Assembly: GCA_008632985.1 (NCBI GenBank)
Contig: QPGO01000024.1
Coordinates: 124,001-188,000 of the forward strand
Source: Psammoneis japonica
Lineage: Eukaryota
DNA: 64,000 nt
Reading direction: 5' to 3'
Below, in pieces: positions 13,001 to 62,484 of this stretch; positions within the stretch are counted from its first letter, which is position 1; each line of letters begins with the position of its first letter. Position numbers and translations under genes: made by a program. Under the pieces are notes generated by a model that was not told where the DNA came from, searched no databases, and worked only from the letters and a program-made list of their open reading frames with translations.

Positions 13001-13099
13001 GAGGCCTTTGATCATGGAACAAGCCACCTTGTCCTTGTTGTGGGCTGGGGCACTGCCCAGCAAATTGGGCTGCAAGAAGACTTCCACAACAACAGCACA

Positions 13100-18700: not shown

Positions 18701-18944
18701 AGCTCACATGCCTGCTGTGGTTGCTTGTTGCAAGCAACATCCAGGAGCAGTGGTTGCCACCACCATGCAGAAACAAGAAAAAATGCTTCCCAAGATGTGC
18801 TCTGAGCAGCATGGTGACAAGCAGCTACAAGAAATTGACCTGCTTGGGTGTGTGACACAATGAGCTGAGAGACGAAGGGCAGACAAACTTGGGCCAGTCA
18901 TTTTGCTTGCTGAGATTGACCTCTTGCTTGGCAGGGCAACTCAA
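15750..18944. repeat. Repeat family B, copy 1 (about 3.2 kb, unclassified)
   Basis: Colinear with 52376-55968 from CACAGTCTGACCTTGCACAGG to GGCAGGGCAACTCAA. Lacks about 360 bp present at 53145-53505. Confidence 0.9.
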
Positions 18945-19537: not shown

Positions 19538-19969
19538 TGCCCCATGCATGCAACAGGCGACGAAAATGCAGATGTGTTTCAATTGTGTCATTGTGGAAAA
19601 TTATGAGCTAATTTCATGTAGAGAAATGGGGTCGTAGGAACAGGGAATCGCATCAAATTCGCTGTTCGTTTGCATTGTGGATCGCACCAATCGATCGTGC
19701 ATTCGCATTGTGGATCGTGCGAATCACACCAACACGCGCTGCGCACGAGTGATGTCATCGTGTGGAATCACACTGCTGTTGTGGGCCAGACAACAGGTTA
19801 GTGTGCTTCACACGGATGCTCTCTTAGCATCCTTCTGGATTTGCCTGAGACACAGAGCCACATCCTCCTGTGGTCTTGCTTCCCAGGTGCGTGCTGACAA
19901 CACTGCGTTGTCACGCACAAGAGGCCATGCACAGTCTTGCCGTGTTGTCCAGTGCTGAGGCATGCTGCA
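19538..19969 (-). repeat. Gypsy 3' LTR (432 bp)
   Basis: Direct repeat of 24408-24840; adjacent polypurine tract. Confidence 0.92.
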
Positions 19970-20185
19970 CACTCCCCCATGATCAGGGCTGTTGAGTGAC
20001 AGAATGTCTCACTGGTGACAGGGCACAATCTGCCATAGATTGCATGCATCTGTCAGTGCTCCATTCTGGATGCGCAACGTGCCATTGTCACACACACGGA
20101 CAACTCTGGCAGGTCCTGCATGGCAGTCAGAAATGCACTTAGAAGATTGTTCTTGTTTTGTGAGCGCCAATTGCCCAACGGTGTG

Positions 20186-24312: not shown

Positions 24313-24407
24313 GGTGATTTTCGAGTTTGTTGGTCCTGCCAACATGTTGCAGCATTCGTTTTTGTAGATTTTGTAACCTCGCACACCATGCGGGAGCAAT
24401 GTCACTG

Positions 24408-24840
24408 TGCCCCATGCATGCAACAGGCAACAAAAATGCAGATGTGTTTCAATTGTGTTGTTGTGGAAAATTATGAGCTGGTTTACATGCAGAGAAATGG
24501 GATCGTACGAACAGAGAATCGCATCAAATTCGCTGTCTGTTCACATCATGGATTGCACCAATCGATCGTGCGTTCGCATCATGGATCGTGCGAATCACAC
24601 CAACACACGCCATGCACAAGTGATGTCATCGTGTGGAATCACGCTGCTGTTGTGGGCCAGACAACAGGTCAGTGTGCTTCACACAGATGCTCTCTTGGCA
24701 TCCTTCTGGATTTGCCTGAGACACAGAGCCACGCCCTCCTGTGGTTGTGCTTCCCAGGTGCATGCTGACAATGCTGCGTTGTCACACACAAGAGGCCATG
24801 CACGGTCTCGCCATGTTGTCCAGTGCTGAGGCATGCTGCA
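24408..24840 (-). repeat. Gypsy 5' LTR (433 bp)
   Basis: Direct repeat of 19538-19969, followed on the + strand by TSD CAGG. Confidence 0.92.
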
Positions 24841-32030: not shown

Positions 32031-32570
32031 TGTGACAGACAAGTAAATTTTATTAATAACGGATATAAATATTTGTCTGTCACAATGGGCATTGTGACAG
32101 ACAACTAAATTTTATTCATAATGGATATAAATACTTGTCTGTCACAGCAACTTGTGACAGACAAGTAAATTTAATCCATAATGTATATAAATACTTGTCT
32201 GTCACAACGTGCATTGTGACAGACAAGTAAATTTTATTCATAATGAATATAAATATTTGTCTGTCACAGCAACTTGTGACAGACAAGTAAATTTTATTCA
32301 TAATGGATATAAATACTTGTCTGTCACAGCAACTTGTGACAGACAAGTAAATTTTATTCACAATGTATATAAATACTTGTCTGTCACAACGTGCATTGTG
32401 ACAGACAAGTAAATTTTATTCATAATGGATATAAATATTTGTCTGTCACAGCAACTTGTGACAGACAACTAAATTTTATTCATAATGGATATAAATACTT
32501 GTCTGTCACAACAACTTGTGACAGACAAGTAAATTTTATTCACAATGAATATAAATAGTAGTCTGTCTCA
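32031..32570. repeat. Tandem array of nine 60-62 bp palindromic units
   Basis: Unit TGTGACAGACAAGTA-(AT-rich, about 24 nt)-TACTTGTCTGTCACA-GCAACT starts at 32031, 32093, 32153, 32215, 32275, 32335, 32397, 32457 and 32517. Confidence 0.95.
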
Positions 32571-32945
32571 ACGGGCAGTTATGAGACCCAGACCATAAAT
32601 AATGATGTTGAAGTTGGTCCGGCAAGCGAGAATCCGGGTTCCTTTTTACCTCCACCGCGTGACGAAAGCACACGAAACTTACAAAAAACCGTCGCAGCCG
32701 ACGATGAGATTGAGGCGATAAGAAAGTTATCGAGACTATCATCGTTTCGTGGACTTTTCATACTGTTTCTTCAGCAGCTTGGCGCTCTTGGTGATACTTG
32801 AGACAAAACTTGAGAGACGAAGGCATTGAGAGGGAAGTGGAACGAAGCCAAGACACTGCGAACTGCAAGAGTGCATGCACCAACACACGCGACTTCCCGC
32901 TCCCCCCAGCAATTATTCATACCAATCTCCTCCGCTCCTCCGCGC

Positions 32946-33935: not shown

Positions 33936-36900
33936 TCAGAAATCCTCGTCGAAATCCCAGCCTTCTTCATTATCTTGATTAGCATCATTAGCAGGAGAAG
34001 GATTATGGCTCGGCTCATTCACCGGCGCCTCTGCTTCGGGTTCTCCGGCGGCGTTGGAACTGGCATGGCTCTTTTTCAGGTTCTGACTCATGTCGCGATC
34101 TACAACAGATGGTTCGACAGGTTTCGAAACGTGCATTGCTTGAACTTCCTTCGATAGCACATTTGATGAAGGAGGGATACTGGTCACCTCCGTCGATGAC
34201 ATATTCGCCTCCTTCGACTCTGTCGTAGAGGTGGTCGTGCTATGGACATTGGTCCCCCCAATATTTTCTGTAGAGGTAGATTTCATTGGAGCAGCTAGCG
34301 TTGAAGCTGGTCGTATGGCGGGGCCTGACTGGTTTATCTCCGCCACAAGAGTAGATGCTGAAGGCGTGGCTCTGGCTGGTTCTTGTCGAGGATCGGATAC
34401 TGGACAGGCTCCTTTTCGACTCACATGGTACACAAGATGTTGTGTTCCCTTCATTATCCTGCATGCGTCTCTTAGCGCCTGTTGAATGCGACGAATCGTC
34501 GTTTGGTCAACAAGCACTCTCCTCAAGGTGTCGTTTTCTGCTTTGAGGTTCGCAATAGGATAATCGAAATTAGGATCCAAAGAGTGGGAGACCGCCCAAG
34601 CCATCGCTGTTTCGTAGCCTTCATTGTTCGTCATCATCGCAGCCCGCCTGGCGCCGTTCTCACTGTAGCCTCGTCCAATGAGACGTTGGACAACACCGGC
34701 ATCTGGAAGCACATGATTTGGGGGCTGACTTGAAGAGGCCTCCTCGAGCATCGCCGAAACCTCCGCCTCACTGGTTTCCTTCAATTCGCTAGCAAGGGCC
34801 ACCCCTGCTTCTTTATTTTCGATATGCAAAAGTAGAGAGACGCCAAACTCAAGGGCGAATCTGGCGTCATCACTCTCCATCCCCTCCCGAATGCCAGTCA
34901 TATCGGTGTGAAAAGAGTCAGCAATACACCAAAATATCACCAAGCGACAAATCGTGTGCAGCAAAGGGTCAGCCGACTTGTTTTCTTCGCCCACGAAATG
35001 CATTTGTAACTCAGAGTAAAGTCCGCGCATATCTGTCCCATAGTGCTCACGAATGTAATCGAATATCCGGTCACCTGGTCTCGAGTGGCCGAGTCCCTCC
35101 AGCGAACGCGAACCTTTTGACTGCGGTACACCCCCGACGAGCGTCTTGGCTGTCTTTGAGAAAATGCGAGCTGCCTTGAAAACAAGAAATCCCGTTTTTA
35201 CTGACGAAGCATGTCTCGGTTCAGCAGTTTCTAATTGAATCGACATTTTCTCTTCAGTTGGAGGGAGTGACTCTTGGCTTGCTTCTCGAATATGAGGCCA
35301 ACGACCGCTCCGCATTTCCAACGCACTGAAACTTTTGATTATTATCTCGAGCAATCCAGTGTGGTTCACCGATAGCTTCCCACGAAAACGTTGTAAACAG
35401 CAAGACAAAGCTCCTTTCTCGTATAACTATCGTCGAATTCATCCAACGCGACGACTTCTGCAACAGCTTTAAGTCGCACTCTCACGTCCTCTTCTCCTTC
35501 CCATGGTAACGAAGGGTCACAAACAAGGGAAAAGCACGCAGCTGCTGAGGCCCCGTACAGCTTGGCTCGCACAGCATGATGTACAACTCGACTTCGCAAA
35601 AACACTTGCGACGACAAACAGTCCAATCCCAGGATACCCGCAAAATGATAAATTGCGCCACCTGGTAGAGATGGGAGGTTGTCGCTCCTTGGCGCTTCTT
35701 GCGAGAGAAAAAGGCTCTTGAAATACTGGCAAATTCTGAAATTTGCTTCGGTCGCGAAAGAAGGATCTTTCCAAGCAGCGCATCCTGAAAGTACTGTATG
35801 AGGATTCTCTGTAAGCACAAGCTCAACAACGTCGAGAGGTGCTTTCTCTCGGATATCACGAACTTTCAATCCGCAGTCTCTGCGCCCAGCAAATAAGACA
35901 TTTGCCAAGAAACTGGCAGCATCGAGAAAGCGACGCATGTTGCAGAACTCTGTCCTGACATCTGGAAAGAGAGGTTCAAACAAATCCTGGCATTTTATTG
36001 CGGCCTCTGCGATTCACTGTCATCTACAGAGAAAAACGATTCTCGTAAGAACGCCAAAACGAGGTTTTGCATGTCTTGCTTCTGTATCCACTCGTATTTT
36101 TCAGCTCGAGCGACGTCGACAAGAAGTTCAACGTGCCCCTTATTCAGCAGCGGGCTAAACAGTTCCCTTTGAATCGCTTCGTTAAATACAAGCATATCCT
36201 GAAAACAGAGTCCATTCAGATATTGAAGGTCAGCAAAGAAGTCTTCAAACAGGGACATCTTTTCCAGTAAAGTTGAATCCGGGATTGTCTCAACTAGTCG
36301 AACAACCCCCTTACACATTTCTGAAACCATCTTCATTCCGACAATCATCTTTCCTTTCCTACCGCCATCACTCGATTTCGTCTCCTTCCGGTATGATATC
36401 ATTTCAAGCAATAGCGAAAACGCTTTATTTCGTATCCACGTTACCAGAATATCAAGCGATACCAAATCGTAGTGCAACAGGTCGACGCTTTCTTGCAATG
36501 ATTTCATTTGGGCATCTGATGCTTCTATCTCGTCTACATGCTTCGGTAAGCACTCATACATTTCCCACATCATATTGATAAGCATTCTGCTGTCTGACTC
36601 CGACAGATCGGAATTGCGCAGCTTCGATGCAGAGGCAGACACAACTTCGACAACCAACCGAATCAAAACAATTTTATCTGAAACAATACGGTCTGTCTCG
36701 CATACAGTTGTTCGACTCGCATTCGCAATCGTAACAGTCAAAGCAAGAGCATCTCGGGTTTCTGATGTATGGTTTGCGCTTCGAATAAGCTGTAGACAAT
36801 AACTAGCAACTGCATCATCCACCATCGCATTACTCGAACTCGAGCCATTCATTTTACCGCTAAGCATATTGTGTTGGAAACCTGGGATCGCCACAAGCGG

Positions 36901-38830
36901 CTTGAGAAACGTCTTGTATCTGGAAAGAACTTCGAAAGAGTCCACTTTATCACCAAGCACAAAACCCACAAGATCGTGACTATTCATATGTATAAGATCA
37001 TCACTTGACATGGTTGTTGAAGGAGAAGCTGGAAGAAACTGAGATGACGGAAACAATGCGTTGTCGTGAAGCATCTGGTTGTACACGTTCGCGTACTCCC
37101 TTAACTCATGCAACTGAAGCGACACCGGCGAGGTCTTCTCCACTTCGAACTTTTCACCTGAATTCTTAATGGCGTGCCCTTGAGACGATTCTATCCGTGC
37201 GAACGCAAAGTCACAGAATTCAACAACAGCGTCTAAGCTGCCGCGGTAATTCTGAATACACCTAGCTCTCTCAAGGTACCACCTTGTAACCATGTCGTTT
37301 CGTCCGTCAGATGTATCAGCACGGATTGGGGACGCCGTAGTTGCGAGAACGATCTTTTCGTCGCGATCGTCAAGGAAGATACCAACTGGAGGTCGCACGT
37401 GTCGTGCCATCAGAGTCCAGTGCAGCTGTCCCAAATGAGCCTCCAAGGGGACAAAGAAGCTGTCGCCATCTCCGTCAGACTTCTCAACAGGAAGCAAATG
37501 GCAATATGATGCAACACTGACTGAAGCTGGTATTTGGTTCAAGATTTCGAAGCGATGTGGGACCAGTTCTAACCGATGTCGAACAAATAGTAAGGTTAGA
37601 ACGGCAACGTCGCCTTTCGCTGCGAACCCCAAAGCAATCTGGTCCAGCGGTACATCGAAGAATCCTCTACCAAACTGCAACAAAGAAGACTGACTTCCAA
37701 ATCTACGAGACAGAAGTTCGTACGTGCAAAGTCTGACCAAGGCGGTGGAAAGCTTCGTGGTCGCTTGAACAAAATCCTGCGATGCGCGAGAATCTTGGGT
37801 CTGATTTTGAGCTCGCTTCAGTCCAATCATGGACGCCATCCTCGCGGTTTCAAAGTGGACGTGCTTGGTTGTAGGGCTATATTCAAAAAGAGACAAAGCT
37901 TGTCCAATTACGTATGAATCATCGAGAATCCTTTCCAAGGAACCGGTTTGCAGTTCCCTCTCCCAAATACACTTGTGACAGAAATCAATGTCGTCTGACA
38001 ACGTCGCACGTTCAAGTCCGTCAAGCGAATCAAAAATTGCAACCGCTTCGTGGTATCGAGCTGATTTTACTAACGAATGAAATATATCTTTGCCACCAAG
38101 TGGCTGTACAGCACAGAGGGAGAGATCAACATTGTAGGTTTCTGCTTCGTCAGCGGCACGACGTCTATACAGAACGAAAACCAATTCATCGTTTGCCCTC
38201 GTGAACGAAAGCCAACGCCAAGTTCCCACCCACCCGTCCAAGTACCAAATCAGATATACTTTTGCTAGACTCACTCCTTGAGTCAGCTACATCCATGAAA
38301 TGCAAATGGCCATCTCCTGCCGCGGCGACTAGAAGAGACTTCCACCAGCAAACATCAGCAACATTTTGAGGTACGCAGGGGCCGTTTCTTAACAAAGATT
38401 CGATGCTTTGTGCTCGGTGCACTAGCATTGTACAACCAGTTTCTGACGATTGATCACCTCTAGCGGACAAGAAAGACGCGCCGCTTATCCCAACAACAGT
38501 GATGCCTCCATTCCAATCCAACGAAGCGACTGTGACGATCGTCCGTCTACCGTCTTCATCGTTGGTTGTTGCTGTCCCGAATTGCAGGCAAGAGATTGGA
38601 ACAGGAGTAGTTACGACGCCCGAAACCTTTTCTCCAAAGCTTTCGCGTCTATTCTCAACAGTTTTTCGCTTTGTTCCTGTACTTTCCGCTGGATTCCCAG
38701 TGTCATCCAATCAAAGCAAAAGATGGTGTCCAAGATTCCCTATGCGGAGCAACGACTTGGATCAAAGAAACTTATTGCGAACAAGAGGGATCCAATGTAA
38801 TGGTTCCGCTCTGATACTTGTGGTTGGGAG
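33936..38830 (-). pseudogene. NBAS/Sec39-like tethering factor with C-terminal UBA; frameshifted in this sequence, 5' end unresolved
   Basis: FAAKGDVAVLTLLFVRH..HRFEILNQIP..YCHLLP and WYLERARCI resemble the NBAS core; UBA-like VVQRLIGRGYSENGARRA..AMAW; ends EEGWDFDEDF. Frames break near 38200, 36010 and 35405 with no evident introns. Confidence 0.7.
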
Positions 38831-46838: not shown

Positions 46839-47126
46839 TTTAATTACTGGTTGACACGATACAAGACAAACGATCGCAAGGCTGACTCCCAAGTTAGCAT
46901 CTCAGGCAATGGACGTAATTGACGAAACACATGTACAGTGGAACAGCCTTGTGGCAAGGAGGGAACGAGCTTGTACATGCTATCTTGAAAGACAGTCCTG
47001 GCTGCCATGGATAAGGTAGGATGATTTGAATCACACTTACGGTAACTTAGAAAGATTTGTTAGATTTTGGTTTTATTAAAGTCATTACAGTAGGATTACG
47101 ATGTGGGGTTAACAAGAGCACTGAAG

Positions 47127-48172
47127 TTAGAATCGGTGGCTGCGGTTCATCTGGCTGCGTTCGGCGCGATCTTCGTAGTGGTATTCCGAGCGACCTTCGT
47201 AGTCGTAGTGGTATTCCGGGCGACCTTCGTAGTCGTAGTGGTATTCCGGGCGACCTTCGTAGTCGTGGTGGCATTCCGAATGACGACGACGTCCCGACAC
47301 AAGAGACTCAAGATACTCGTTTCGCTTCGTCGCGCATTCCAATTTGTAGGTCGCGCATTCCAATTCGTACTTCAGGCGGCGTTCAACCTCGCAGTTCTTG
47401 GTATTAATCAAGCTACAATTTGGGTTGACGTACTTGACGACTCTGTGGAAAATGCCCCTGTACATTTTCGGGTCGGGCAATCGGTGCCTCCCTGCACAGT
47501 GAGCGATCATGTTGCGACCTCCATTTAAATACTGCAAGTCTTTTTTAAGCTCGACAGGAATGTGGCGTTCGACTTGTCCAATGACCTCGCCGAGACCGTT
47601 GCACGGGTTGACATATTCTTTCGCGTAGGCTTGGAAGTAAAATTGGAGAAACTTCGAACCACAAATGCTGAGTTCCGCGTCATTGTCAAAATTGCATTCG
47701 AACTTGTCATCCTCCTCGTTCAAGGGAAACGAGATTTTTCTCTAGGCCTACTACTATAGACCAGGCTCTCTTCCACGAGGTCGGGGACTGCGATCTCGCG
47801 CTCGGCTTCCGACGACGCATCGACGGGCGGAGTAGCCAATAAATTGCGACGTGGAATGACGAAATCAGAGCACAAATCGGACAACTTCTCGCGAGTTTTG
47901 TCGCCGGTCTTCGTCAAGCTGTTCGTCAAGTCTTTCCGCACCCCCTCGGCGTCTTTCTGAATGAGCTTAGCCATTTTCAAGAGGACGGTACTGTCAGATT
48001 CGGCGCTGCTCTTTGCACGACTCATCGCTTTCTTCGTCTCGCGTTGATCAGCCTTTTCTTCTCTCATTCGCTTTCTCGATGCTTTACGACCAAAATCCTT
48101 TAAGAAATTCTTCCGTTCTTCCCTCTTTCGCAACTTGTCTGCCTCCCTTTTCTCTTCAACTGCCTTGGCCAT
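47127..48172 (-). CDS. Hypothetical protein(s): basic coiled-coil ORF overlapping a HEPN-like ORF (RNMIAH) with a repeat tail; may be one frameshifted gene
   Basis: ORFs 47720-48172 and 47127-47723 overlap in the -1 frame. GLGEVIGQVERHIPVELKKDLQYLNGGRNMIAH. Normal TA/CG content. Confidence 0.5.
47165..47280. repeat. 30-bp tandem repeat (about 3.5 copies) encoding HYDYEGRPEY on the minus strand
   Basis: CGACCTTCGTAGTCGTAGTGGTATTCCGGG repeated. Confidence 0.9.
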
Positions 48173-48827
48173 GTTGTCCTTGTTGTTGTTGCTGCTGCGA
48201 GTATGAGTTGTGTGGTTGATCGTGGTGGAACTGGAGCATGATAGCATCGAGCGTGTTTTTTTTTCCAGATACGTTTTTTTTTCAGATACGTTTTCGCTCT
48301 GTCATTCAAACCTTTTTCATTCCTACTCGAAAGAACGCGACCCAAAAACACGACAAACACCCTTCACATTTGCACGGTCGTTCAAACCTTGTGCATTCAC
48401 GTGACAGTAGACCATCGTGGCGGACCATCGTGACGGGCATCATTGTGGCCACGGCCTTATTCTGAATGACCCTTGATGCATGATGCGTGCATCTATCTAG
48501 CTAGGAAAATAGGGGGGGGTACAGACGGAAGAAGAGGGGGGGAGAGGGGGAGCGAAGCGACCCCGTTGTTGCTGCTTTAACAAGAGAGAAGGAAGGAAGA
48601 GAGCAAACGGAAGCAGCAAGGAAAGAAGTGAGACGACCGTGCGATGTGTTGTTGCGTTTTTGCGGAGTTGAAGATAGAGCGCATGAGCCTGACGCGCATA
48701 AAAGATTTCTATGGTAGATTTTATATATGCGCTGTCGCCCCCCATTTCCCATCTTCTATCTTGGTCCCAATTTGAGATGGAACGTTGGCTAGAATCACAG
48801 TGCAAATAATGAATCTACATTTACAGG

Positions 48828-51800
48828 CTACTTGGACGAACAATGTTCATCATGCGGTACTCTTCCTCGAGCAGCCACCCCCAACAAGTTTGTTTTTGAA
48901 AGATGAAAATCCCTGGCTCGGAAGCAACAGAATTTTTTGGTCAGATCCGATTGCAGATTCGGCGCCAGATGCAACGGCGGCAAATATGTTGGTGAACTAG
49001 TCCAAAATGGAGTAACGGCAATCTGCACACAGCATGGCACAGGGCATGGTGCAACAGGGACGGGTGGTGCACGTCTCGGCGCTGCCTTGTCTTGAGAACA
49101 CGAGGACTTGTTTTTTTTCGCGCTCGGCCCCTCAGCACACGTCGGCGTCGGCTGTTGTGACTCGCGGTTCCTTTTGCATGGGTTCACCACAGTTGATGCA
49201 GGATTAGATCGAGTTGCACATGGGTTTCTTGTCCCACACTTGCTGCACATGCATCTGTCAGGGTCGTTGTTGCTGCTCGCAGCTGCTGCGCCAAATTTTG
49301 CTTTTCTCGCTTCGAGTTCCTCGCCCACGCTTTCTAGTTGTTTCGGGTGTGCTGAAAAATGCCGCTCACCATTGTCTGCTTTCAATTCTTCGACATTTTC
49401 ATGCACAGGATGACCGACTCCCGCTTTCTCTGCCAACTTGTTGTTGTGGTCGAGCCTGCTGTGGTTGAGAAACGTCGGCACCCCACGAAAGGCGTGCGGA
49501 ATCTTGGCGCGCTCGTCCGCCGTCATCTCGTCTATTCGAAGACGCTGGCGTGTCGTAATGTTGCATTCACACGTTCCAGCAAGGCACAGTGCATCTATGA
49601 AGGCACTCCTGGAACCAGTGTTTCCAAAATGCTTGACGATGTGATGAAACTTCTCAAGCTTGGATTTGGCACCGGTGGTGGTGACGTACGTGTCAAGCTT
49701 GCACTTCGACCATTTTGAAGGCTTGACGACTCTGTACAAGTCTCCACGTTGTAAAGGCTCATCGAGTCCACGAGCTGTCACCTTTGCATTTTCTGCCGCT
49801 GGCTTGGTGTCTTCCGTGAAGAGAGGCCTGCCAGAATCTGGATCATGCCGTCCGCCGGCGTCTGCCGCTCCAGGAGACGCAGAGCACTTGCACCGATTAA
49901 ACCACGCTTCAAGATTGCTGTTGCGTGTTGCGAGAGGGCAAGTCCACCTTCGCATGTGCTTCTGGCAGTTTTTCCATTTCTTGCTCTTCTTGATCTCTTG
50001 AATTTCTTTGCTTGTGTGTGTCTTGCTGCCGAGCCTTCCAAACATTGGCGCATCGATCACCCGCGCCTCGTTGGATTCATCATCATGCCGAACACAATCT
50101 TTCAAGTCATGAACGGCACGACAGTGATCAATGTGAGTGCCTCGCAAGGTGCGAATGATTCAGTTAGTCTAGTGCCAAAGACCAAGCCGACACACTGTGT
50201 CCTGACCAAAAATTTCTTTCCAAAACTCTTCCTTGTTCGGCCATGTGTCAGAATGGTGAACTTGGGGGTTCACATTTGGACGTCTGGCGAATTGCTCAGC
50301 AGCATGGGCAAAATCCTTGGTTTCCAGTGATGGCACCACTGCCGCCACCCCAATTTCCCCCGTCTCAACAGCCATGGTGAAAAGTCCTTTTCCGTCATTG
50401 TCTTTGCAATTTTTCAATTGGTCGAAGGTGTGGTCGGAAGCAACGCTCACACGACAACCAACTGATTGGATCTCTCTTGTGTGTCGCATGTTGTCGCTCA
50501 TGCCAGTGTTGGCATGTTTTGAATCGGCAACTGCATCAAACATGTCGCGCACGTTCTGACCTGTTGGTCCATGTCGACCCAACCACTTCTCAAAAGTTGA
50601 CAACACTGGTGTGGGCGTCGTGGAACTTTTCGCCGCTTCGATCCACCTTAAATGATGTCGCTCCTCCACATCAAGGTAAGCTTGGCCACGTTGTTGATGC
50701 AGGTGTGCCGATGTGGCATCACCGTTGCTGCTTTCCTTCAATTCGTGCTCAGCGCATCTTGTTGTTGTCAAGTCCACATGAAACGAGGAGTTCGCGACCG
50801 CGCACCGAACGTCCACGGGATGTGACTGTCAGACAAGCTCAGGCAACTTAACTGGTAGCTTGCCATCATTCCCCTTGCATTTGCAACCACATTTATTGCA
50901 TTTGTGGCACATTGCCGTTGCGCAATCGGTGTGTCCACTGACTTTAAAGATGGGAGTTGCCGGACAGTCCTTTTTTACATCAAGTTGCTGGTGCATCATC
51001 TCACCACCACAATCATTGATGCAAGGCAAAAATGTGCCCAGACAATTGAGCTCCCAGCGAAGCACATGTGCTGTGACACCCTCCACCTCACTGTGGAGAT
51101 CATCTGGGGCGGAGAATGTGCTGTCACGAGGTGCTGTAAATGACAAGGTGCCAGGGGGGAAGTGCTTCTGGTGCCATGCCAGCTTCTTCTTGTTTGCCTC
51201 TCCACCCATCATCTCGTTTGAGTCGGCATGAAATCGAGATGGCAACAAGTCCAATGGATGCAACATCAAAGCTTGCACTGGTGCAGAACAGGAGTTCTTC
51301 TTTTTCTTGCATGCATCAACTCTTTTGCGAATCTCTCTCTTCAGCACCTCTGGAGAAAGAAGATCTTCTTCCACATTCACGGCAGAAAGCAGTGTGTTCT
51401 TCGACCGGATGGCAGTGATGGTGGCAGCAGCAGCACCGGCAGCAGCAGTGACGGGCGTGGTGTCGGCAGCATCATTCAACGAGTCGGTCGTTGCAGATGG
51501 CTCGCTGTTCTTTGAAGCCCTGGTGTGAATGCAGAACAGGTCCTCCACACCTTCCTCAGTTAGACGCTGAAAACCCTGCACTTTTTTTGCGTTCTTTCTT
51601 GCGTTGCTAGTCACAAAGCGGTGGACAGCCGCGTTTCGCTCGGTGCTCATGTTCTTTCCACAATGTGTGGATTTTGGGCAGCCAGGGTCATGGCCCTTTT
51701 TGCAGGTGGGTCCTTGTTTGCATCTCTTGCACTCAACAACCTTTTCTTGAGCAGTGTGACTGTTTGATGGAGTCAGAATTTGCGATTCTGCCTCCGCCGC

Positions 51801-52000
51801 CGGTGATGTTGTAAACCGAGGCGCATTTTTTCCCGACAACTTTGCGACTCCAGAAAAAGCTCGCTCCTTTGCTTTTTTCGTGGCTGCCTTTCGAGTCTGA
51901 GACTGAATGCCCATGGTGCTGGGAAGCTTGCGGGAGCAACACTTCTCCATTCTGCTGCAATTCCTTCTCTCAGAACTCTCCTGTGCAGGTGGGTCGGCAC
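48828..52000 (-). pseudogene. Large (about 1000 aa) DDE-transposase-like ORF broken by three in-frame stops; family uncertain
   Basis: ORFs 50829-52091, 50169-50816 and 48828-50147 share one frame. Cys clusters, then VASDHTF..ETGEI..HSDTWP..CRLGLWH..SKLEKFH, reminiscent of DUF6729-associated/Dada/MULE-like transposases (from memory, not searched). Confidence 0.5.
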
Positions 52001-52375
52001 TGATGATGAGTGAGATGAAAAAAGACCAGAGGAGTTTGAATTTTGTGTGTGGTGTCTTTGTCCGAGCGCCAGTGCTCAGACTGTGGCGCATCCGTCTGAG
52101 ATGGACGAACCGAGGTGGCAGTGTCTGTGTTGCATTGATCGTTGACTGGTGATGATGTGCATTCTTTCAGAAAGCCTTGAGTGTTGCAACATGTGTTCTT
52201 GAAATGAAGCGTTCTGATTGGTCCAATCTTCCATCGGCAGGGGGCCTGTCACGAGCTGCGGTGTGTCATTGTAACGTACGTGCGCATGTCCGTCCGTCCA
52301 TTTTCAAAAAGAAATGCTGCACACAAGTTGGTCGCGCACGTTTGGGTTCGTTCGATGCAGCCGTGCAACTAGCCA

Positions 52376-55300
52376 CACACACAGTCTAACCTTGCACAGG
52401 GTCATCTGACAGTTGCAGAACAGATGTCCTTGTGCAGGGGTTGCTGGCTGTTGTGTCTTGGCTTCTGACAACAGGACTTTGACAGCAGCCAAGTTGCTGT
52501 GTGAGTTGACAGGCTCTGTGCTGCTGCAACTCTCCAGATCAGAACACTGCTCTGAACCTTGCTTTGGAGCATGCTGGACTTCAGGTGCCTTCAGCATGGA
52601 AAAACCTCCAACCTGGACAGAGGCTCTGGTGTTGACAAGACTGCTGGTGTTTGTTCCATGATCCAGCTTTCCTCTGCAATGATGACATGTTTTGCACACA
52701 CACAAACTGTGGGAGAGAAAGAGTGGAAGTTCAAAAACTGACATTTGCAGCACTGCAAATGATGAGGTTGAACTCTGCCCAAGCTCCTGCTGCACACAAA
52801 AAGTCCTGAGTGAGAAAACTGCATGGAGTTTGCACTGGGGGACCCAAAAAAGTCCAGAACAACGGGATTTTTAGCTTTTTTTTGGACATCCCTGGCACTG
52901 CTTTTATGTTGGATTCTGCACAGTTCTAGAAAATCCTGTCACTCTGGACATTTTGTGCTCCCTGGCACAAACTCTGTGCACCATTTTTGCTCCAAACTTT
53001 CTGTGCATGGCAGTGCAGGTCAGGCTGATGCTCTTGTTGAGATCCACTTGGTTGACCAGGTTTTGAGCATCCTCTTCTGTGCAGTGTGGACCAGACACTC
53101 TTCCACACATTGACAAAATGAACAAGAGTGTCAGAGGCAAAATGTGCCACTGAGCATCTGTCAGACCAGACAGCTTCTTGATGAGATGCACAAAAGACAC
53201 TCATGACATGCAGCTAAAATGGAGCATGTTTTTCTGATCTTTGATGGCACAGAAACACTGCTTGGCTCTGTCAAAAAATGGCCATTGTCTCTCTTCACTC
53301 CTTGCAGCAACTCAGCTGATGCTGGGCCTTGGTCAGAATTGGTTGTCATGAGCCCCTGCGGGTCATGCACTGAAAAACACATTGAAGAAAACAGCTGACA
53401 GATGTCTGACTTGGTGAATCTTGAATTTGAGACATCCTCTCCAAAGAGCAAGTGACCAAAGGTGGTTGTGCTCAATGTTGTTGATGAACATGATGCCTGC
53501 ATGGTGAGAGTGGTGCTTTCACAAATCTTGTGATCCATGGAGGCATGCTGGCCACACACATGCAGACACATTGGCTGATCATCTTTTGGGAGTTTGGCTT
53601 GCCTCTCAGCTCTCAAAGATCCAAGGTTGGCACAGCAGCTGTGGTTGGCTGCCAAATGACTTGAGGTCAGTTGGAACAATTGACTGCCACAGTGGCTGAT
53701 GATCCTTTGATTGCTGACAATGGCAAGTTTCAAATGAGAAACTCTCAAATTAAAACACTGAACACACTGTCAATTGGGAGCTTTTGGTCCTGAGTTGTGT
53801 CATTGCCTTCATGCCAAGCCCCAATCTGCAATGATGTCACTCCAGTGTCAGAAGGGAGCAACAGCCCAATCACACTGCAAATCTTCTTCCAAGGGCACCT
53901 GTCTGTCAAATGTTTTTTTGGACATGGTGCATCCACAGAATCATGCCCTGCTTGTGAAGCAGAGATCCTGAAAACTCAAAGAGGGGGGGTGTGGAGTTGT
54001 CAAATGAAGATCACAGGTTTTGCAAACCAGCCAGTGTCTTCTTTGGGAAGGATCGCTGCACCCCTTGCCAGGAAAAGTTGCCTGCCAGCACATGTCACAT
54101 GTGGTTATTCTGGACAAGAGTTGTTGAATGGAAATTGTCACCAAGCACTTCAGCAGTCATTGACCAGCAGCTTTTTCACATCTGCAACTGCTCAGGATGA
54201 CTTGTGTCAGAGTTTGACAACCAAATTCAGGGCAATCATTGTGGAAACAACCAAGCAACATCCTCCTTTGAACAAGGCAGAGTTTTAGATGCCATGGTTG
54301 ACAATGACATCACCAAAACATGGCACACACATCTTTCTTCCAAACAAGATGCTGCCACAACCAGCACTCATTTGAAAAAGATTGTTGCATGGTTGAAAAA
54401 ACATGGATTGTGCAAGGCAGCATTTCTTGTCATCCAGGACTGCACAGATGACGGATGTGCCAAGCAATGCAGGCATGATTTGGCACTGCATGTGTTGTCT
54501 GTGTTTGTGTGCAAATGCAAAAAATTGTGTTCAACCCAGCAGTCTGTGCACCTGGACACAGGGCAAGGGAGAAGTGGGTGGCATTGGAGCACACACAAAG
54601 TCTGTGGCATCAGAGGGAGAAATGTGGCCCATTGATTTGGTGGCAGGAGCAAACAAAAAAGCCAAGAAAATTGGCGCAAATGTGCCAGTTGTTGTGGATC
54701 AAGACAATGTGTTGTCAAGTCACACAAGAGTGCTTGAAAGTTCTTGAAGAAGGAATGTGCAAAAGGGGCACATTTGTGGCAATTGTTGGAGATGTTGATG
54801 TCCACTGGAGTTTTGCTTGTCATGGCAACAAAACTGCCTGGGGATGCCTTTGCAGATGACTGCACAAATTTCTTGAATGTGAGCTTGCGCCATGCTTTCC
54901 AGCATTGACAATGGTGGCAGGAAGAGGGTTCTTGGCAATGGTGCCAGCACTCACAGTGAAAATGACAGCTGTGCAGAAAAGGACATCATGAGCAGCTTTC
55001 ACAGTTGAGAGGTGAGCTGGAGGCAATTCTGAAAACTGTGATGACTTGACCATCAAAAGAAATTCTGTGTGCACTGCATCAGTCTTCAACACAAAAGTCA
55101 TGCAGAAAGTGCACACCATGTGAACCTCAAAGAACAAGTGGCGCCGGCTGTCAGGGGTGAGAAAAGCAAGTTTTGTGGTCACACTGCAATGGTGTGGGTC
55201 ATGGCGTGAATTCAATTTTCAAAACATTTCAAGCCAGCAACATCATGGTTGCATTGGCTGCATCTGTTCTGTTGCATCTTGTCTTTTCTGAGATTTTGCA

Positions 55301-55968
55301 GCTTGAATTTTTGTGCCAGTCTTGCATGACATCAACATTGGACACCCCCCCATGCTTGTTGAGTTGTGCAAAGTGAGGTGAGCAACCAAGCTGCTGAGCT
55401 CTGCCTCAGAATGTTTGAGTGCAGGCATGGGATGAGTTTGCAATGACAATGACTCCAGGTGCACATTTGACGGGAGTTTTGTGGGTTGGCAGAGGAGAGC
55501 AAGACAATCACACAATTGCTCACCCACTGAATCTGGCTGTTCACACACAGGGCCTGCACTGCAGCCACATCAGCATGAGTTGTGTCTTCAATGCCATTGA
55601 ACGCAAGCATCCTGTCTCTCTTGACAGAATTTGAGCACATCAGCCAATTGTCCTCAATTGACCAACCCGCACTGGCACACCTTGTTTGCTGAGCTCACAT
55701 GCCTGCTGTGGTTGCTTGTTGCAGGCAACATTCAGGAGCAGTGGTTGCCACCACCATGCAGCAACAAGAAAAAATGCTTCCCAAGATGTGCTCTGAGCAG
55801 CATGGTGACAAGCAGCTGCAAGAAATTGACCTGCTTGGGTGTGTGACACAATGAGCTGAGAGACAAAGGGTGACCACTCCTTTTTAAAGAGCCCACCACC
55901 AGGCAGACAAACTTGGGCCAGTCATTTCACTTGCTGAGATTGACCTCTTGTTTGGCAGGGCAACTCAA
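52376..55968. repeat. Repeat family B, copy 2 (about 3.6 kb)
   Basis: Colinear direct repeat of 15750-18944. Confidence 0.9.
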
Positions 55969-56528
55969 CACCATGAAAAAATTGTTGTCAGCTTTTGTTG
56001 AAATGATGCAAGAGGCAAAATTTTGTTTTCAATGCCCCCCCATGACAGGAGCACAAAAGACATGATCATGAAAAATGCAAAGATCAACAATTGAGGCTTG
56101 CACAAACGACACCCCATGAGATGGTAGTTGCACTTGATTGTGCTCTGGAAGAACGCGACAAGATGGATCATAAATGTGTGATTGCAGGAGCGAGAGTTAA
56201 ACTTCTCGTGACGAGGCTGGAAATGGAGCTTGGCGGATTGGGGCTGTCAGAGCTGCGGACATGCCTGTGCACTTGTGCAGCGATCCCAGTGCCGCTTCCA
56301 TGTGTTTTTCTGTGTTTTGCCACCAGAGTTTGTGACAATGTGCAATCGTGCGCCTGTTCCCACCGACAAAGACAGCGCCACCCCTCCACTTCTCGCACTC
56401 GAATTCATCTGACACCAAGGCAACAGAGCTTCAATCACCTCCATCAGGTCAAAAGACTCTGAAAGCGTGGAGCCATTGCCTCGTTTGTGAGCATCCCCCA
56501 TCCCCCCCCCCCCAGCATTCGAGTTCAT

Positions 56529-58855
56529 CTAACTGCGAGGCAACAGAGCTTCAATCGCCTTCATCAGGTCAAAAGACTCAGACATCGTGGGGCGTGAAGC
56601 ATGATTGCATGTGAGCATGCTTTTGCAGAGACTGATCATCTCCTTTCCTCCATCTAGTTTCGGCCAATGTTCTGTGAAGACTGCCTTGTTAAAGGCCTGT
56701 CCCAGCTGCTCTTCGAAATTGATCTCTGACGAGAAAGCCTTGTGTGGCATTGGAGCTTCACCAGCCATCATTTCACAGAAGATTGCCCCAACACTGCAGG
56801 CATCTATCTTGTTGCTTGCAGTGCAACTGTTCGCACTCCAGGGGCCATGCACATGGGTGTGCCAGCTTCCTGTGTGATGCCCTGATCGTCATCCTCACTG
56901 ACGGCAGATCTCAAGAGACCGAAGTCTGTGACTGGCACCTTGCCGGTTTCCTCGTCGACAAGAATGTTCACCAGTTTGAGATCGCGATGCATCATCGAAT
57001 GCTGCTCGAATGCTTTGCCTGCCGACATGACCTGTAGCACAACATTAAAAACCCAACGAAATTTTGAAACAGAGGGCTTGATGGACGCCATCTTCTCACA
57101 TTCATCTTTCAGCGTGTGGTTCTCTAATCTCGGCATAAAAGTGGCAAAGCACACCTTGCTTTTCTCTGGTGCTTTGCATGTGTGGCCGAGAAGTGGGACC
57201 ACATTCTTGTGATCGATGAGTCCATGACAAAGCAAAGGGCGCACACCATGCTTGGGGATGTCAGCCACGTCCAAAATCTGAATCTTCATGACCAAAGAGG
57301 CGTGGCTGTTTGCAATTCCATAGATCCCGCCTTGAGCACCAGAGTCCATGTGATCGGTTGTTGAGAATTGGCCCTTCTCAAGTTCCCAGAGAAGCCCAGC
57401 TCCTGCCTTTTCCTGAGTGGCAAGGGGGCTGCTCTTCTTCTGCTGCTTGAAACTTTCCACTTGATCTCTTACGTTGCCCATGCAGTCATCCTCATAATCA
57501 GATTTCTCAAGTGCAGCTCAAATGACAGGATTGTGCATGCAAAGTTCCAACGTAAAATGCGGTCCTGGTCCAAGGGCAGTTTGTGGATCCAGCTCGGATG
57601 CTTCCACGTCAGTCTCGTTGCACGAAAGCTCGGCCACTTCCGAGTCGCGTGCTCCAGCAGCAATCGAATCGTCCGCCGCGATGAGAAACATTGGGTGTTT
57701 GTCCTTGATGCTCTGCAAGCAAGCGTCCATGAAGCCGTGGCCTGGAAAGTGGCGCTCGCACTTCTCCACCATGGGGCAGAGTTGCTCGTGTGGTTGTGTG
57801 AACAGATTGCGCAAATCCGACACTTCAACAGGAATGTCCGGGTCAAAGCTCGATGCACCGGCTGCGGTCCTCGTGTCAGCGCCAGGCGAGCTGACCGTCA
57901 ATGATGCAGCATTTCCGTCGGATGTGCCACTTGGTCCAACGGCAATCCACAGCAACTTGAGTTCTTTGATGGACCTTGATGGACCTGCAACGATGTGTGG
58001 GAAAATGTTGTTCTTGATTGTGTTCTCAAGCAATGTCATTTTTGCGGTTTTCAACAAGTCCATGCCAGTGTCAATTCTTTCCACGAATTGCAACAGGTGA
58101 TCATCGCCCAGCAACAGCTCCACGATCATCTGTTTTGCTTGTTTTTTGAAGACATGCGGACAAAGATTGCCTTCTCTGAGTTCCAAGGTGAGCTCAGTTG
58201 CTCGTTCGAGCTGTGCCTGTGACATGAGGCCCCAGATCGCATCGTCACGAAGCAGCGCCACGCATTTGTCTTTCCCCAGAGAATGCTGGGCTGCTGCCTC
58301 CATCAGACACCTCACAAATTCTCGAACACTCTCATCCGACCCAGAAAGCTGGGGTTGGATTCAAATCAACTTGGAAACTTCGACGAGCATGAGCATCAAA
58401 TCATCCACATCGCTTCCTGATTTTCCCTTCTTCTTGTTGCTGTCCGGCAGCATCCACGCAAGAAGGCCTTGCACCTCCTTCTCTTCTGCTGATGGCAACC
58501 TCTGCTTTTCAATGGAAAGGTTCAGCTTCATTTTTTCGGCCTCGAGCAAGGACCAAATCGTGGGTGAGTCCTCCTTGCTGATGAGACATTTTTCTCGTCC
58601 AACGTTGAGGGCGGCTCGGATGAGACTCACATTCAGCAAGTTGTCTCTCATGGCATTGAAGCAGCCCGTGAGCTGCAACGACGTCTTTCCAAAGGCAGCG
58701 ACATCCCCAGTGCTTCCTCGGCCGGTCATTTCATCATCACTGAACGAAGCGGCATTGGCAAGAGTCAGCCGCGCCTTTGGGTCTTCGTCTGAGCCACCAG
58801 CTGCAGCCTGTCACTGACGATTGCGAATCTTTGGTGTCTTTGCGTTGTGTTCCAT
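56529..58855 (-). pseudogene. Ser/Thr protein kinase pseudogene with long N-terminal extension
   Basis: SGAQGGIY, VMK, HRDLKLVNILV, TDFGL, GTPMCMAP, KIDACSVGAIFCEM, SRPT; several frameshifts. Confidence 0.85.
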
Positions 58856-59015
58856 TGTCACAGAAAAGATGTCTGACTGCAAAAGGATGTTGTGATGAAA
58901 GGTGTAGCGAATGGAAGCAATTGGTCGCAGAGACATGATGAAATCAAAATTCAAAATGGCCGCTGGTGTTGTCGTTGACCATCTTGTTGTGGTTTGTTGT
59001 GGCTGGAGCGAAGAG

Positions 59016-59600
59016 CGGGATTTTCTAAAAAATGGGATTTTAAAAATTTTAAAAGAAAATTGAGTCTCAAAATTTTGAAAATCGTGTTTTCTCAGCAAAT
59101 GCGGCAAGAACGTGATGGATCAGCCGCACGTCGGGATTTTCTAAAAAAATGGGATTTTCAAAATTTTAAAAGAAAATTGAGTCTCAAAATTTTGAAAATC
59201 GTGTTTTCTCAGCAAATGCCGCAAGAACGTGATGGATTGGCCGTCCGTCAGGATTTTCTAAAAAAATGGGATTTTCAAAATTTTAAAAGAAAATTGAGTC
59301 TCAAAATTTTGAAAATCGTGTTTTTTCTCAGCAAATGCCGCAAGAACGTGATGGATTGGCCGTCCGTCGGGATTTTCAAAAAAATGGGATTTTCAAAATT
59401 TTAAAAGAAAATTGAGTCTCAAAATTTTGAAAATCGTGTTTTCTCAGCAAATGCCGCAAGAACGTGATGGATTGGCCGTCCGTCGGGATTTTCAAAAAAA
59501 TGGGATTTTCAAAATTTTAAAAGAAAATTGAGTCTCAAAATTTTGAAAATTGTGTTTTCTCAGCAAATGCCTCAAGAACGTGATGGATCGGCCGTCCATC
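59016..59600. repeat. AT-rich tandem repeat of about 117 bp, 5 copies
   Basis: GGATTTTC(T/A)AAAAAATGGGATTTTCAAAATTTTAAAAGAAAATTGAGTCTCAAAATTTTGAAAATCGTG..GATGGATTGGCCGTCCGT repeated. Confidence 0.95.
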
Positions 59601-59659
59601 TTCCGTTTGTGGTTTCAAAGGAACGTTTGCATCGCGCAGGCCTGGACACTTCTGAGATG

Positions 59660-61951
59660 TTTTAAGAGCAAAACAGGCAAGGTGAAAATGACTTGCAGCA
59701 TTGGAGCACAGGGATCAGAGGTGGTTTTTGCAGGACAGACATGCAAAGTTGCAGTGGAAAGACACACTGATGATTTTGGACAACATGGTGGCCAAGTTTG
59801 CACCCACAACTTGGGCTGAGTGTTGCGGGTCTTGTGTTCACTTTTAACTTCTGCACTGGGTTGACATGGCATTGGTGGTTGACAGTGTCAGCAATGTGTT
59901 TGCAAGCCATTGGGCTGAGCTGGGAGTCAGCGAGACCAAGTGCTGTTTGCTGGCCAGCGACCCACCAAACTCCAACACAGAAGCCAAAAAGGCACGGCAT
60001 GACACTCAAAGGAGTGTCATCATCAGAAGGCTGGGAAGTTGAGAGGAATCTAAAGAAAAAGACTGAGAAGTTGACAAGAATCCAAAGTTGTGCTTCATGT
60101 TGGTGGGTCACACCAGCAAACAAACTGGCTGGATGAGGGCAAAGAAATGATCTCTGGAGGGCCTTGCCACCAACAAAGCTGTCAAGGGTCTGCTGAAAGA
60201 GGGTGTGGCAAGGTTGTGTCAGGGTCAGCAAGACAGGGTGTTCACCTGTCAGCAAGCCATGAAAGTCCAACACAAGCCCCAGAAAAGATGGGCAAGGACA
60301 CAGCCAAGTGTTGAAGCATGAAAGATTGAAGGAGTGGGTGTGTGACACCATTGCCAAGTTGGGATGACAGGCAGATGGTTGCACAGAAACCACAGGAAGA
60401 TGGACAAGCATGTGTCAGAAGAATGCTCAGCTGGAGATGTGGGCAGTGGTGTCTCTGGGGCAAGAGAGCACCACCCCAAAAGAGCTGGAGCATCTGTGGG
60501 GAGTCACCCTGTGGGAGAAGGACTGGGGCAAGGAATGTGGTCACCATGCAAAACAGGGTGCAATCTGCAAGACACATGAGGCAAAGGCGTTTGACATCAT
60601 TTGAGGGGCAATGTGCAAAGGTCATTCACCACAAAGTTGAAGGAGCAACAGAGTTTGCAAGAAGAGTTGCTCCTGGAAAGGAGTGGGACATGGCAGCACT
60701 GCTGGATGTTCTTAAGTCAATCTTGTTCCACACAAATGAGAAGACAAACCCACACATTGAGGTGGTCAAGGCTTGGAAGCAGTTGGTGCTCATTTGTTGA
60801 GATGAAGGAGAGGTGCTTCAAGATCAATGTGACTGGCCCATGAGTGTGGTTGAAGTGGTGAAAACATCTTGTGGCAGGATTGCCATCATGGAAAAAATCA
60901 CCAAGAAAGAAGGTGGGTTCAGCAAAGATGCCAATCACAGCCAGAACAAAAAAAGGGACAAGTTGTTGGCAGTGACACCAATGGAAGGTGCCAAGGAACA
61001 TTGGCACATCCTGAAAGACCCACATTGGCAGTTCACACTGGGGGGCGACATTTGCCCCAATTCAGCTGAGGAGGAACTGCAGATGTTGGACACCTGTGGG
61101 GCCAATGAGAAACCTGATGGCGCAAGTTTTGCACAGAGCAAGAAGAAGCATGTCAGATGCTGGAAATGCAATGAGGTTGGGGGGCATGTGAGAAAAGACT
61201 GTCCTGATGACAGCCATCATCCATCAGTGAAGTCAAGTGGTTTGGGCCACTGGAGTCAATGATGGAACAGTTGACATGGTGTTGGGTGACATGGATTCCA
61301 AGTGATGCTCTCCCATGCTTGATGCACACAAGGCCAATGTCATCAGTTGACTGCTTGTGCAAAGGAGTGTGTTGGATCATTGGGGCCAGAGGCAGTTTTT
61401 GCACAGGACAGATGACAGACAAAGTTGCAGTGGAAAGACACACTGATGATTGTGGTCAATGTGGCAAGCTTGCACTCATGACTTGGATTGAGTTGCAGGT
61501 CTTGTGCTCACATTTTAGCTTCTGCACCTGGTTGACATGGCATTGCTGGCAGTGGTTGACAGCGCTGGCTGCAGTGTTTTTGTGAGCTGCACAGTGAGTC
61601 AGGAGACAGCAGTGTGATCAAATGCATGCCAGTTGGTGAGCTGTGAAACTCCAACATGTAGACAGATCTCCTGCAAAGTGTCTTGGAGAGCTGGCACTTT
61701 TTGAAAAGTTGCTCAAACGCAATGACCCGTGCGTGCCTGTCGCTGGGCACGAACAAGTGCTTTCTTGTGGCTGCCTTTGTGAAAACCACCGACAGAACCA
61801 ACTCTGAAAATTGAGACAACTTGACAAAGAAAAGAAATTCTGTGCACATGACACCAGCCTTTCTGGCACAACAGCCACTTGCAGTGCACACAGGTGCAGC
61901 CCTTGAGGAAGCCGGTGTGTGAAAGCAAGTTTTTGTGGTGTCGCGCTGGCT
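59660..61951 (+). mobile_element. Repeat family A, copy 3 (uninterrupted; carries the empty Gypsy site)
   Basis: GGTTGTGT-CAGG-GTCAGC at about 60212-60229 has a single CAGG. CWKCNEVGGHVRKDC at about 61158-61202. Confidence 0.85.
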
Positions 61952-62484
61952 CCTCCTGTGCAACATCCGCAGTGGCACCAACTCATTTCCCCCCAAACAT
62001 TTGAAAACAGCAACATTGTGGTTGCTCATGTGTGCAAGGAAGCGATTTGGTGTGGAGATTTGCGCAAGTGAGTGCTGGCTGCCTCGCCAAATGCACGTGC
62101 AGCAGCACAGCTGGAGAGTCAGCTGTGTTGTGCTCCTCTCGAGAAGGATCACATTCAAGAAAATCACATCAAAGGACTGGGACTCAGTTCTGCTGGTCAG
62201 ACAATTTGCACAATGCCAACACTCTCTTGTCATGCCGAAAGACACCGTGCTGGCATTTGAGTCAGCAGTCTCAACTCTCTCCAGGTGCTGCAAGCGAGCT
62301 CGCGTGAAGCGTGAAGAACGACGGGCACGCTCAGCGCTCAGCGCTCAGCTCTACTCTGGGGGCCCTAGAGCTAGCCACCAGAGATAAGCACCAAATCAAA
62401 ATTCTACTGCCACTTTCCACTTTGGACTTCCGATTTCCGATTCACGACGGACGACGGAAAAATTGAACTTTCGCGCGCAGCGCG

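Follow-up and report, generated by a model that had tools for sequence, protein, structure and literature searches.

Probable TpA-directed hypermutation ahead of slower CpG decay in a dead DNA transposon copy of the diatom Psammoneis japonica

Hypermutation that inactivates mobile DNA where it lies, through transitions at a specific dinucleotide and leaving a strong dinucleotide skew, is known from Neurospora and other fungi under the name repeat-induced point mutation (RIP), whereby CpA is converted into TpA. A process directed at TpA itself is reported in a preprint on the chlorarachniophyte alga Bigelowiella natans: mutation-accumulation lines gained 231 mutations in two integrated regions of viral origin, of which 230 were A>G or T>C changes, every one of them at TpA, with a rate of ~6e-7 per site and generation (Mettrop et al., bioRxiv 10.64898/2026.01.13.699255). 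The rate is about 1,000-fold above background. The authors propose an ADAT2-like adenine deaminase, and one hypermutable region, a single-copy nucleocytoplasmic large DNA virus (NCLDV) insertion, has a TA observed/expected ratio (o/e) of 0.45. Among diatoms, transposable elements (TEs) of Phaeodactylum are reported to carry DNMT5-dependent cytosine methylation (PMC9998398). Our full-text literature searches for TpA erasure in diatoms returned no diatom paper and only the B. natans preprint. Here we analyse a window of 64,000 nucleotides from the diatom Psammoneis japonica (GenBank GCA_008632985.1, contig QPGO01000024.1, positions 124,001–188,000; coordinates below count from the first nucleotide of the window), about half of which is taken up by blocks with hardly any TA and with CA/TG nearly doubled. 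Our subject is one copy of a multi-copy DNA transposon, carrying a transposase pseudogene on the minus strand at 48828–51914. The copy is dead, and we consider it probable that its TA dinucleotides were erased by a TpA mutator, ahead of a slower decay of CpG.

The locus resembles the B. natans regions in several respects: the hypermutation is TA>TG/CA only, it is confined to foreign or mobile DNA, adjacent genes are spared and the lasting trace is low TA together with high CA+TG. Targeting in both is not simply a matter of copy number; the region there is single copy, and the edited tract here ends inside a multi-copy element. The systems differ in that viral insertions of a chlorarachniophyte are hit there and transposons of a diatom, a stramenopile, here; TA o/e falls to 0.02–0.15 here versus 0.45 there; a slower CpG loss runs alongside here; and only the B. 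natans work provides real-time data. Relative to RIP, the direction of change is reversed. RIP raises TA and A+T content and makes stop codons out of CAA, CAG and TGG, whereas here TA is destroyed, CA and TG are raised and GC content stands at 0.51 versus a median of 0.46 in relatives. The repeated 323 bp at the 3′ end of the element, whose ends are approximate, are unmutated, which would argue against homology dependence. CG>TG/CA changes of the kind that decay of methylated CpG would leave are seen at conserved codons, as two CGA>TGA changes, CGN>CAR and GCC|GAA>GCC|AAA, and neighbouring old repeats have lost nearly all CG; in this element it would be the minor process. The codons document, one by one, TpA-directed hypermutation in a diatom, a phenomenon that our searches otherwise met in print only in one 2026 preprint on an unrelated alga.

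The minus strand of 48828–52166 is a single frame of 1,112 codons with three in-frame stops and no frameshift, and the frame of the pseudogene has 6 stops per 1,157 codons versus 26–49 in the remaining five frames. Relatives align without a frameshift from Met85 (MGIQSQ, nucleotide 51914) to a C-terminal CC...GR.PH motif. Because this alignment spans Met85 to the C-terminal Cys/His motif at the stop codon, the true coding sequence (CDS) is 51914..48828, and 51915–52300 is upstream sequence outside the open reading frame (ORF). Two Asp residues that are invariant in 52/52 relatives, D578 (50433–50435) and D640 (50247–50249), are retained; position 834, Glu in 51/52 relatives, is Lys in the window copy (AAA following GCC).

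Over 48828–52300, TA occurs 29 times (o/e 0.15) and CG 183 times (o/e 0.80), with CA at an o/e of 1.61 and TG at 1.43; the CDS holds 27 TA (o/e 0.15) and 165 CG (o/e 0.81) at a GC content of 0.51. The initial annotation, made from the letters of the window, had described an unshifted frame with rare TA, abundant CG and a long segment free of Tyr. All of this is borne out, with the three stops added to the frame and the first segment, read by eye, extending to 445 amino acids without Tyr. Throughout the window, TE blocks have a TA o/e of 0.02–0.23 and host blocks one of 0.44–0.61; the host stretches compared directly with the element have a TA o/e of 0.55–0.61 and a CG o/e of 0.98–1.10.

Such poverty might be a trait of the transposon family or of a foreign donor genome, through its composition or codon usage. 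We regard this as very improbable, as nothing beyond the low TA count itself speaks for it and the relatives speak against it. Their composition was measured over matched coding stretches in 46 loci out of 78 from metagenomes (the first 31, to which we chose to add 15 whose matches were long), and all 46 have a TA o/e of 0.35–0.69 (median 0.55), with CG at 0.03–0.88 (median 0.72). The 11 uninterrupted relatives (824–1,059 codons) contain 48–138 TA and 90–136 CG each. Intact relatives are therefore not as TA-poor as the window copy, a possibility that the initial annotation had named as one that would refute its reading. CA and TG o/e are 1.40 and 1.62 versus 1.31 and 1.48 in the relatives. Within the window, unrelated elements (the Gypsy element, a copia-like reverse transcriptase and a kinase-bearing block) share the pattern.

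The codons show where the TA went. Tyr accounts for 4 of 1,112 residues (0.36%), with 4 Tyr codons in the CDS, versus 1.7–5.5% (median 3.4%) in the 52 relatives. At the 15 columns with Tyr in at least 60% of those relatives, the window copy has His at 8 (CAY), Cys at 2 (TGY) and Tyr at 2, the remaining three being Ser, Phe and Arg, one each; other conserved columns are unchanged in 165 of 230 cases. An alignment of nine relatives gives His at 9, Cys at 4 and Tyr at 3 of its 19 Tyr columns. As the relatives are not TA-poor and conserved Tyr residues now read His or Cys, TA has been lost through TA>CA/TG mutation; about three quarters of the TA dinucleotides of the copy were turned into TG or CA after its lineage split from the relatives. 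Tyr was replaced even where 46–50 of 52 relatives keep it (Y449H, Y504H, Y587C, Y940H and Y693R), and therefore the protein is dead. Amino-acid composition, with Tyr lost and His and Cys gained, can flag edited genes. Surviving TA is enriched for CTAA, TTAA and CTAG (11 of the element's 29 sites and 90 of 164 when all TE blocks are counted, where ~15–18% is expected), and ATAC/GTAT is absent from the 164 survivors of the TE blocks (16% expected). No significant strand bias of the mutator was detected in His:Cys ratios of 9:4 (p = 0.27) and 8:2 (p = 0.11).

A further alternative is that the copy was already TA-poor when it inserted, its source copies having been partly erased earlier, such that its contrast with CG would reflect lineage history. 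The low TA o/e over almost 3.3 kb despite an open frame would fit this, and losses shared among copies would escape notice in the 40 of 396 inter-copy differences listed. We nevertheless think it improbable, as a working transposase is unlikely to have replaced Tyr residues that 46–50 of 52 relatives keep, and the 3′ untranslated region (UTR) of the same copy retains normal TA. Comparison with other copies points the same way. Contigs of one public sample containing this DNA (run X1) were mapped onto 47000–56000, where they differ from the window by 319 transitions and 76 transversions, and inter-copy events were classified among the differences listed (40 of 396), 20 of which lie inside the element. 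Among these 20, 7 have TG in the window and CA in another copy or the reverse, 3 have TA in the other copy where the window has TG or CA, 6 are CG versus TG or CA, and 4 are other changes. Opposite products at one site mean that the copies had already diverged from one another when each was mutated. We also considered RNA editing with subsequent reverse transcription and rejected it, given that this is a DNA transposon and that single-copy-like blocks are affected as well.

TA and CG have not been lost to the same degree. Across the 52-relative alignment, 10 of 12 informative Tyr codons now read CAY or TGY versus 2 of 12 CGN Arg codons that now read CAA or TGA (Fisher p = 0.003), informative columns being Tyr columns that are still Tyr, His or Cys and Arg columns that are CGN, CAR or TGA. 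With nine relatives, 13 of 16 Tyr codons are lost versus 3 of 16 Arg codons (p = 0.001). By this Tyr/Arg codon test, per-site TA loss would have been about 8-fold faster than CG loss in this copy. The 17 conserved Arg columns are made up of CGN (10), AGR (3), CAA (1), TGA (1) and others (2), and only a handful of changes are of the CpG>TpG/CpA type, namely those behind two of the three stops, an Arg>Gln replacement or two and Glu>Lys at one conserved position. The CGA>TGA stops at Arg columns and the Glu that now reads AAA after C therefore indicate that CpG decay has begun; decay of 5-methylcytosine, which the initial annotation named, would be its cause.

The same order is visible across the window. 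Among 128 bins of 500 bp, with TA-low defined as o/e < 0.25 and CG-high as o/e ≥ 0.5, 25 are TA-low and CG-high, 52 have lost both and 1, a satellite, has kept TA and is CG-low. The Gypsy interior (TA o/e 0.14, CG 0.53) and the kinase-bearing block at 55871–59000 (TA 0.09, CG 0.64) are TA-poor with CG kept, and two repeat families, A (TA 0.03–0.05, CG 0.06–0.07) and B (TA 0.02–0.08, CG 0.13–0.16), have lost both, each as first described (families A and B together spanning TA 0.02–0.08 and CG 0.06–0.16). A relative from another organism (L040, 189–1415) has a CG o/e of 0.03 with a TA o/e of 0.38, that is, CpG decay without TA erasure, and the order seen in the window is therefore a property of this genome. 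To place TpA erasure in time relative to CpG decay is to address a relation that the B. natans preprint does not.

The open frame, by comparison, says little about age. When every TA in every pair of sense codons was enumerated, none of the 1,976 possible TA>TG/CA changes created a stop; CGA>TGA is the sole CpG transition to do so, and RIP-type changes create TAA and TAG. Loss of 75% of TA and 20% of CG, simulated on the 11 intact relatives, produced a mean of 1.1 stops versus 4.2 for an equal number of random substitutions. The window gene has two stops of the CGA type and one other. The frame would thus persist because the TA mutator makes neither stop codons nor indels, and its near-intact appearance, which had been read as a sign that TA loss outpaced CpG decay, follows from the chemistry of the mutator and is by itself no proof of fast TA loss. 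In such a genome, an ORF does not testify to a gene that is live or young.

Erasure is graded along the element and stops within it. From the 5′ UTR through the three thirds of the CDS to the 3′ UTR, TA o/e runs 0.09, 0.12, 0.11, 0.21 and 0.71, and CG o/e runs 0.72, 0.62, 0.86, 0.96 and 0.93; the 5′ end adjoins family A and the 3′ end adjoins host DNA. A return of TA had been placed in the last 250 bp of the ORF, where it is weak (5 TA versus 22 in the other 2,837 bp; Fisher p = 0.06); the clear return lies just beyond the stop codon, at 48505–48827, with 15 TA in 323 bp (o/e 0.71) versus 27 in the 3,087 bp of the CDS (p = 3e-6) and CA/TG at 0.95. Depth assigns the 3′ UTR to the repeated element, and the edited tract is therefore not bounded by the element border. 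We infer that erasure ends ~0.3 kb inside the element on its host-gene side and that targeting follows a chromatin-like domain and not repeat borders. A domain that spreads outward from the old repeat and is checked close to the host genes at 47.1–48.3 kb would fit the gradient, and would call to mind the hypermutable viral region of B. natans, itself single copy. Such a domain edge within a repeated element is a concrete locus for the question of chromatin versus homology.

Several observations weigh against this account. Because Tyr codons offer TA in the TAY context that the mutator prefers, the Tyr test somewhat overstates the average TA loss, and the relatives, only 23–38% identical to the window copy, do not reveal how much TA and CG it started with. 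Recent gene conversion, or some other cause, may account for the high TA of the 3′ UTR, and the element ends are approximate, resting on summed contig depth and a short motif found by eye. The long terminal repeats (LTRs) of the Gypsy element, the only pair in the window that times both losses from one insertion, show a per-copy TA loss of 0.50 (95% 0.2–1.0; 2 sites kept in both, 4 in one) and a per-copy CG loss of 0.42 (95% 0.26–0.64; 11 kept in both, 16 in one), in small numbers and with 6 further TG/CA doubles in which the ancestral step is ambiguous. Losses so similar mean that the ratio of TA to CG rates is not fixed. Finally, CG-poor DNA occurs only inside TA-poor DNA (52 of 53 bins, the exception being the satellite), and retention of TA and CG co-varies within TA-poor bins (Spearman 0.41, p = 2e-4).

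The last three findings are also what would be expected if TA and CG loss were two outputs of one process targeting both self-complementary pyrimidine–purine (YpR) steps, the order being apparent and arising from differing starting CG; so is the endpoint reached by old repeats, in which CA+TG make up 96–98% of YpR steps at a CG o/e of 0.06–0.16. We judge this unlikely. The 25 TA-low, CG-high bins are joined by four whole blocks with a TA o/e of 0.02–0.15 and a CG o/e of 0.44–0.81; the codon contrast of 10/12 versus 2/12 arises within a single gene; and the B. natans preprint reports TpA changes only, 'CpG' being absent from its text (10.64898/2026.01.13.699255). The statement that TA and CG loss scale together is true in part, within TA-poor bins. 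The proposal that TpA goes before CpG is partly supported: it holds for the codons of this copy and, at 25 bins versus 1, as an order across the window, with a lead that varies in size, as the LTR pair shows.

In the explanation that we favour, a TpA-specific transition mutator, marking mobile DNA throughout the genome, would have hit this copy independently of other copies. Its likely chemistry would be enzymatic deamination of A in 5′-TA, best in 5′-TAY, on either strand, and the CpG changes would stem from 5-methylcytosine deamination within the same silenced domain. The copy would be passing via a stage in which TA is gone and CG kept to the state of families A and B, in which both are gone. 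Its frame would have stayed open since the mutator cannot make stops or indels, and not since the gene works, and both losses would rise toward the end next to family A, a repeat already converted in full.

More tentatively, and with rather more doubt than confidence, we raise the possibility of a diatom DNA-editing defence that rewrites both YpR steps of silenced DNA, in a fast TpA phase and then a slower CpG phase, aimed by a chromatin domain in place of repeat homology. Its endpoint would be DNA in which 96–98% of YpR steps are CA or TG, and it would leave long open 'zombie' frames behind; these, if real, would be misread by gene finders and LTR-dating methods. LTR divergence in any case overstates age greatly here: the Gypsy LTRs differ at 41 of 441 positions, of which 32 are at TA or CG sites, with 3 transversions and 2 gaps.

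The protein family was traced through its relatives. A Pfam scan of the window protein, in three ORF pieces, gave no match. A word-based search found 9 relatives (E 6.6e-148 to 2.1e-68, identity 30–43%), and a profile run against 1.84 billion cluster representatives retrieved 2,031 at E ≤ 0.001, of which 695 were at E ≤ 1e-30; the family is therefore large. In Pfam searches, none of 49 relatives scored above threshold and 37 of 40 further relatives had no family at E ≤ 0.01. DUF6729 (PF20499; cut-off 27 bits) scored below threshold in 3 of the 49 (26.1 and 24.6 bits among the 40 further relatives, 19.9 bits among the first nine) and not in the window protein. Atlas feature hits included DUF6729 clusters in 19 of 30, which is a lead only, and KDZ clusters only at scores of 0.78. 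Among the Pfam models for MULE (PF10551) and Transposase_mut, the best match was that of the closest relative, P0002, whose 12.6 bits (E 0.19) fall short of the cut-off of 27.6. The KDZ/CxC models matched none of 10 members at E up to 1 and none of 40 more at 0.01, and querying PDB sequences with the profile of the family returned nothing relevant.

Structure was more informative. An AlphaFold model of P0002, built with 53 sequences (pLDDT 81), has as its best PDB match the IS256-family transposase ISCth4 (6xg8/6xgx; Foldseek E 7.8e-5), with Z 11.4 over 308 of 355 residues and Z 10.8 over 343 of 401. Residues 480–841 of the model match integrase and transposase cores, and retroviral integrases match a core of 120–130 residues only. 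IS256 transposases are described as bacterial kin of the eukaryotic Mutator-like elements (MULEs), and the family, here the closest solved fold, as transposing via circles (PMC7780238). On this model, the single gene of the element encodes a Mutator/IS256-type DDE transposase of a large, unnamed eukaryotic family. Features shared with MULE and IS256 enzymes are a DDE core, in which D...D is followed further on by a conserved Glu, and a match that spans nearly all of ISCth4. A GLWH motif after the second Asp resembles the C/LwH motif of MULEs. The differences are a protein of ~1,000 amino acids with a long N-terminal region that is faintly DUF6729-like and Cys-rich motifs at both ends, the lack of any Pfam match above threshold, and a window copy in which no long terminal inverted repeats (TIRs) or target-site duplication are seen. 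The surmise of a poorly described family holds for Pfam and domain libraries, yet the family is large and its superfamily clear.

The extent of the element (Table 1) was set from the run X1 contigs, whose summed depth is 61–87 over 47000–48504, the host flank, and 185–1,526 over 48505–52417. Contigs of other copies depart from the window sequence at 48513/48514, and a similar short motif ending in ATTTTC, seen by eye, lies at both ends when read outwards. An inverted-repeat scan found no long TIR. Near-identical metagenome contigs, mostly the same sequence from different samples, are uninformative on the element ends. Contigs of other copies skip 49914–50576, 51847–51893 and 52033–52085, and depth is greater at the ends of the element than in its middle, as expected with internally deleted, non-autonomous derivatives. 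Two run X1 contigs join the 5′ end (52237–52245) to the 3′ end (48513–48516) with 20 or 31 intervening letters, at a depth of 28–36, roughly half that of single-copy DNA; circular forms, or copies arranged head to tail at another place in the genome, could explain them.

Table 1. Coordinates of the transposon copy, its parts and the mobile elements named in the text
Feature	Position	Strand	Basis or remarks
One copy of a multi-copy DNA transposon, ends approximate	48505..52305	-	Contig depth, divergence points, end motif
3′ untranslated and terminal part, not TA-erased	48505..48827	-	323 bp, 15 TA; depth at least 706
5′ untranslated and terminal part, TA-erased	51915..52305	-	391 bp; 2 TA, TA o/e 0.09, CG o/e 0.72
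Transposase pseudogene, 1,028 codons, 3 in-frame stops, no frameshift	48828..51914	-	Alignment to relatives
In-frame TGA	50829..50831	-	Column is Arg in 31/52 relatives; likely CGA>TGA
In-frame TAG	50169..50171	-	Residue in the 52 relatives: Phe 28, Tyr 8, Leu 8; does not stem from TA>TG/CA
In-frame TGA	50160..50162	-	Column is Arg in 52/52 relatives; CGA>TGA, CpG transition
RNase H-like DDE catalytic core and insertion domain	49374..50459	-	Mapped from P0002, +90 offset of DHTF motif
Family A, second copy, old repeat	52377..55870	.	Aligns to 15750–18879 at 91–96% identity
Gypsy element	19531–24842		LTRs 19531–19971 and 24400–24842

The family A copy next to the element has a TA o/e of 0.03, a CG o/e of 0.06 and CA+TG at 97.7% of its YpR steps. 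The old repeats with 96–98% CA+TG lie at 10300–18879, 52377–55870 and 59656–61952. Methylated vertebrate DNA has a higher CpG level than their CG o/e, and, given this, their CpG loss may be enzymatic too. The Gypsy element is nested in a family B copy (18977–19537 plus 24841–26532, equivalent to 59656–61952). A protein-kinase domain ORF at 56807–57517 on the minus strand (Pkinase, E 6e-13) lies inside the TA-erased block at 55871–59000; it is a fragment of a host-type gene treated like mobile DNA.

By their protein matches, the host genes of the window look like diatom genes: a NOG1 GTPase at 7938–10052 (Pfam) has its best named relatives in Attheya, Nitzschia and Chaetoceros, at 72–76% identity. 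No taxon emerged from the names of the clusters to which the transposase relatives belong. The longest ORF of the window (35998–38286, minus strand, 763 amino acids) lies in TA-normal DNA; it matched nothing in Pfam, and at E ≤ 1e-10 no relative was returned. Two tandem arrays, whose periods are ~60–62 bp and ~116–119 bp, occupy 31970–32637 and 59016–59643, the former being the only bin of the window that is CG-poor and TA-normal.

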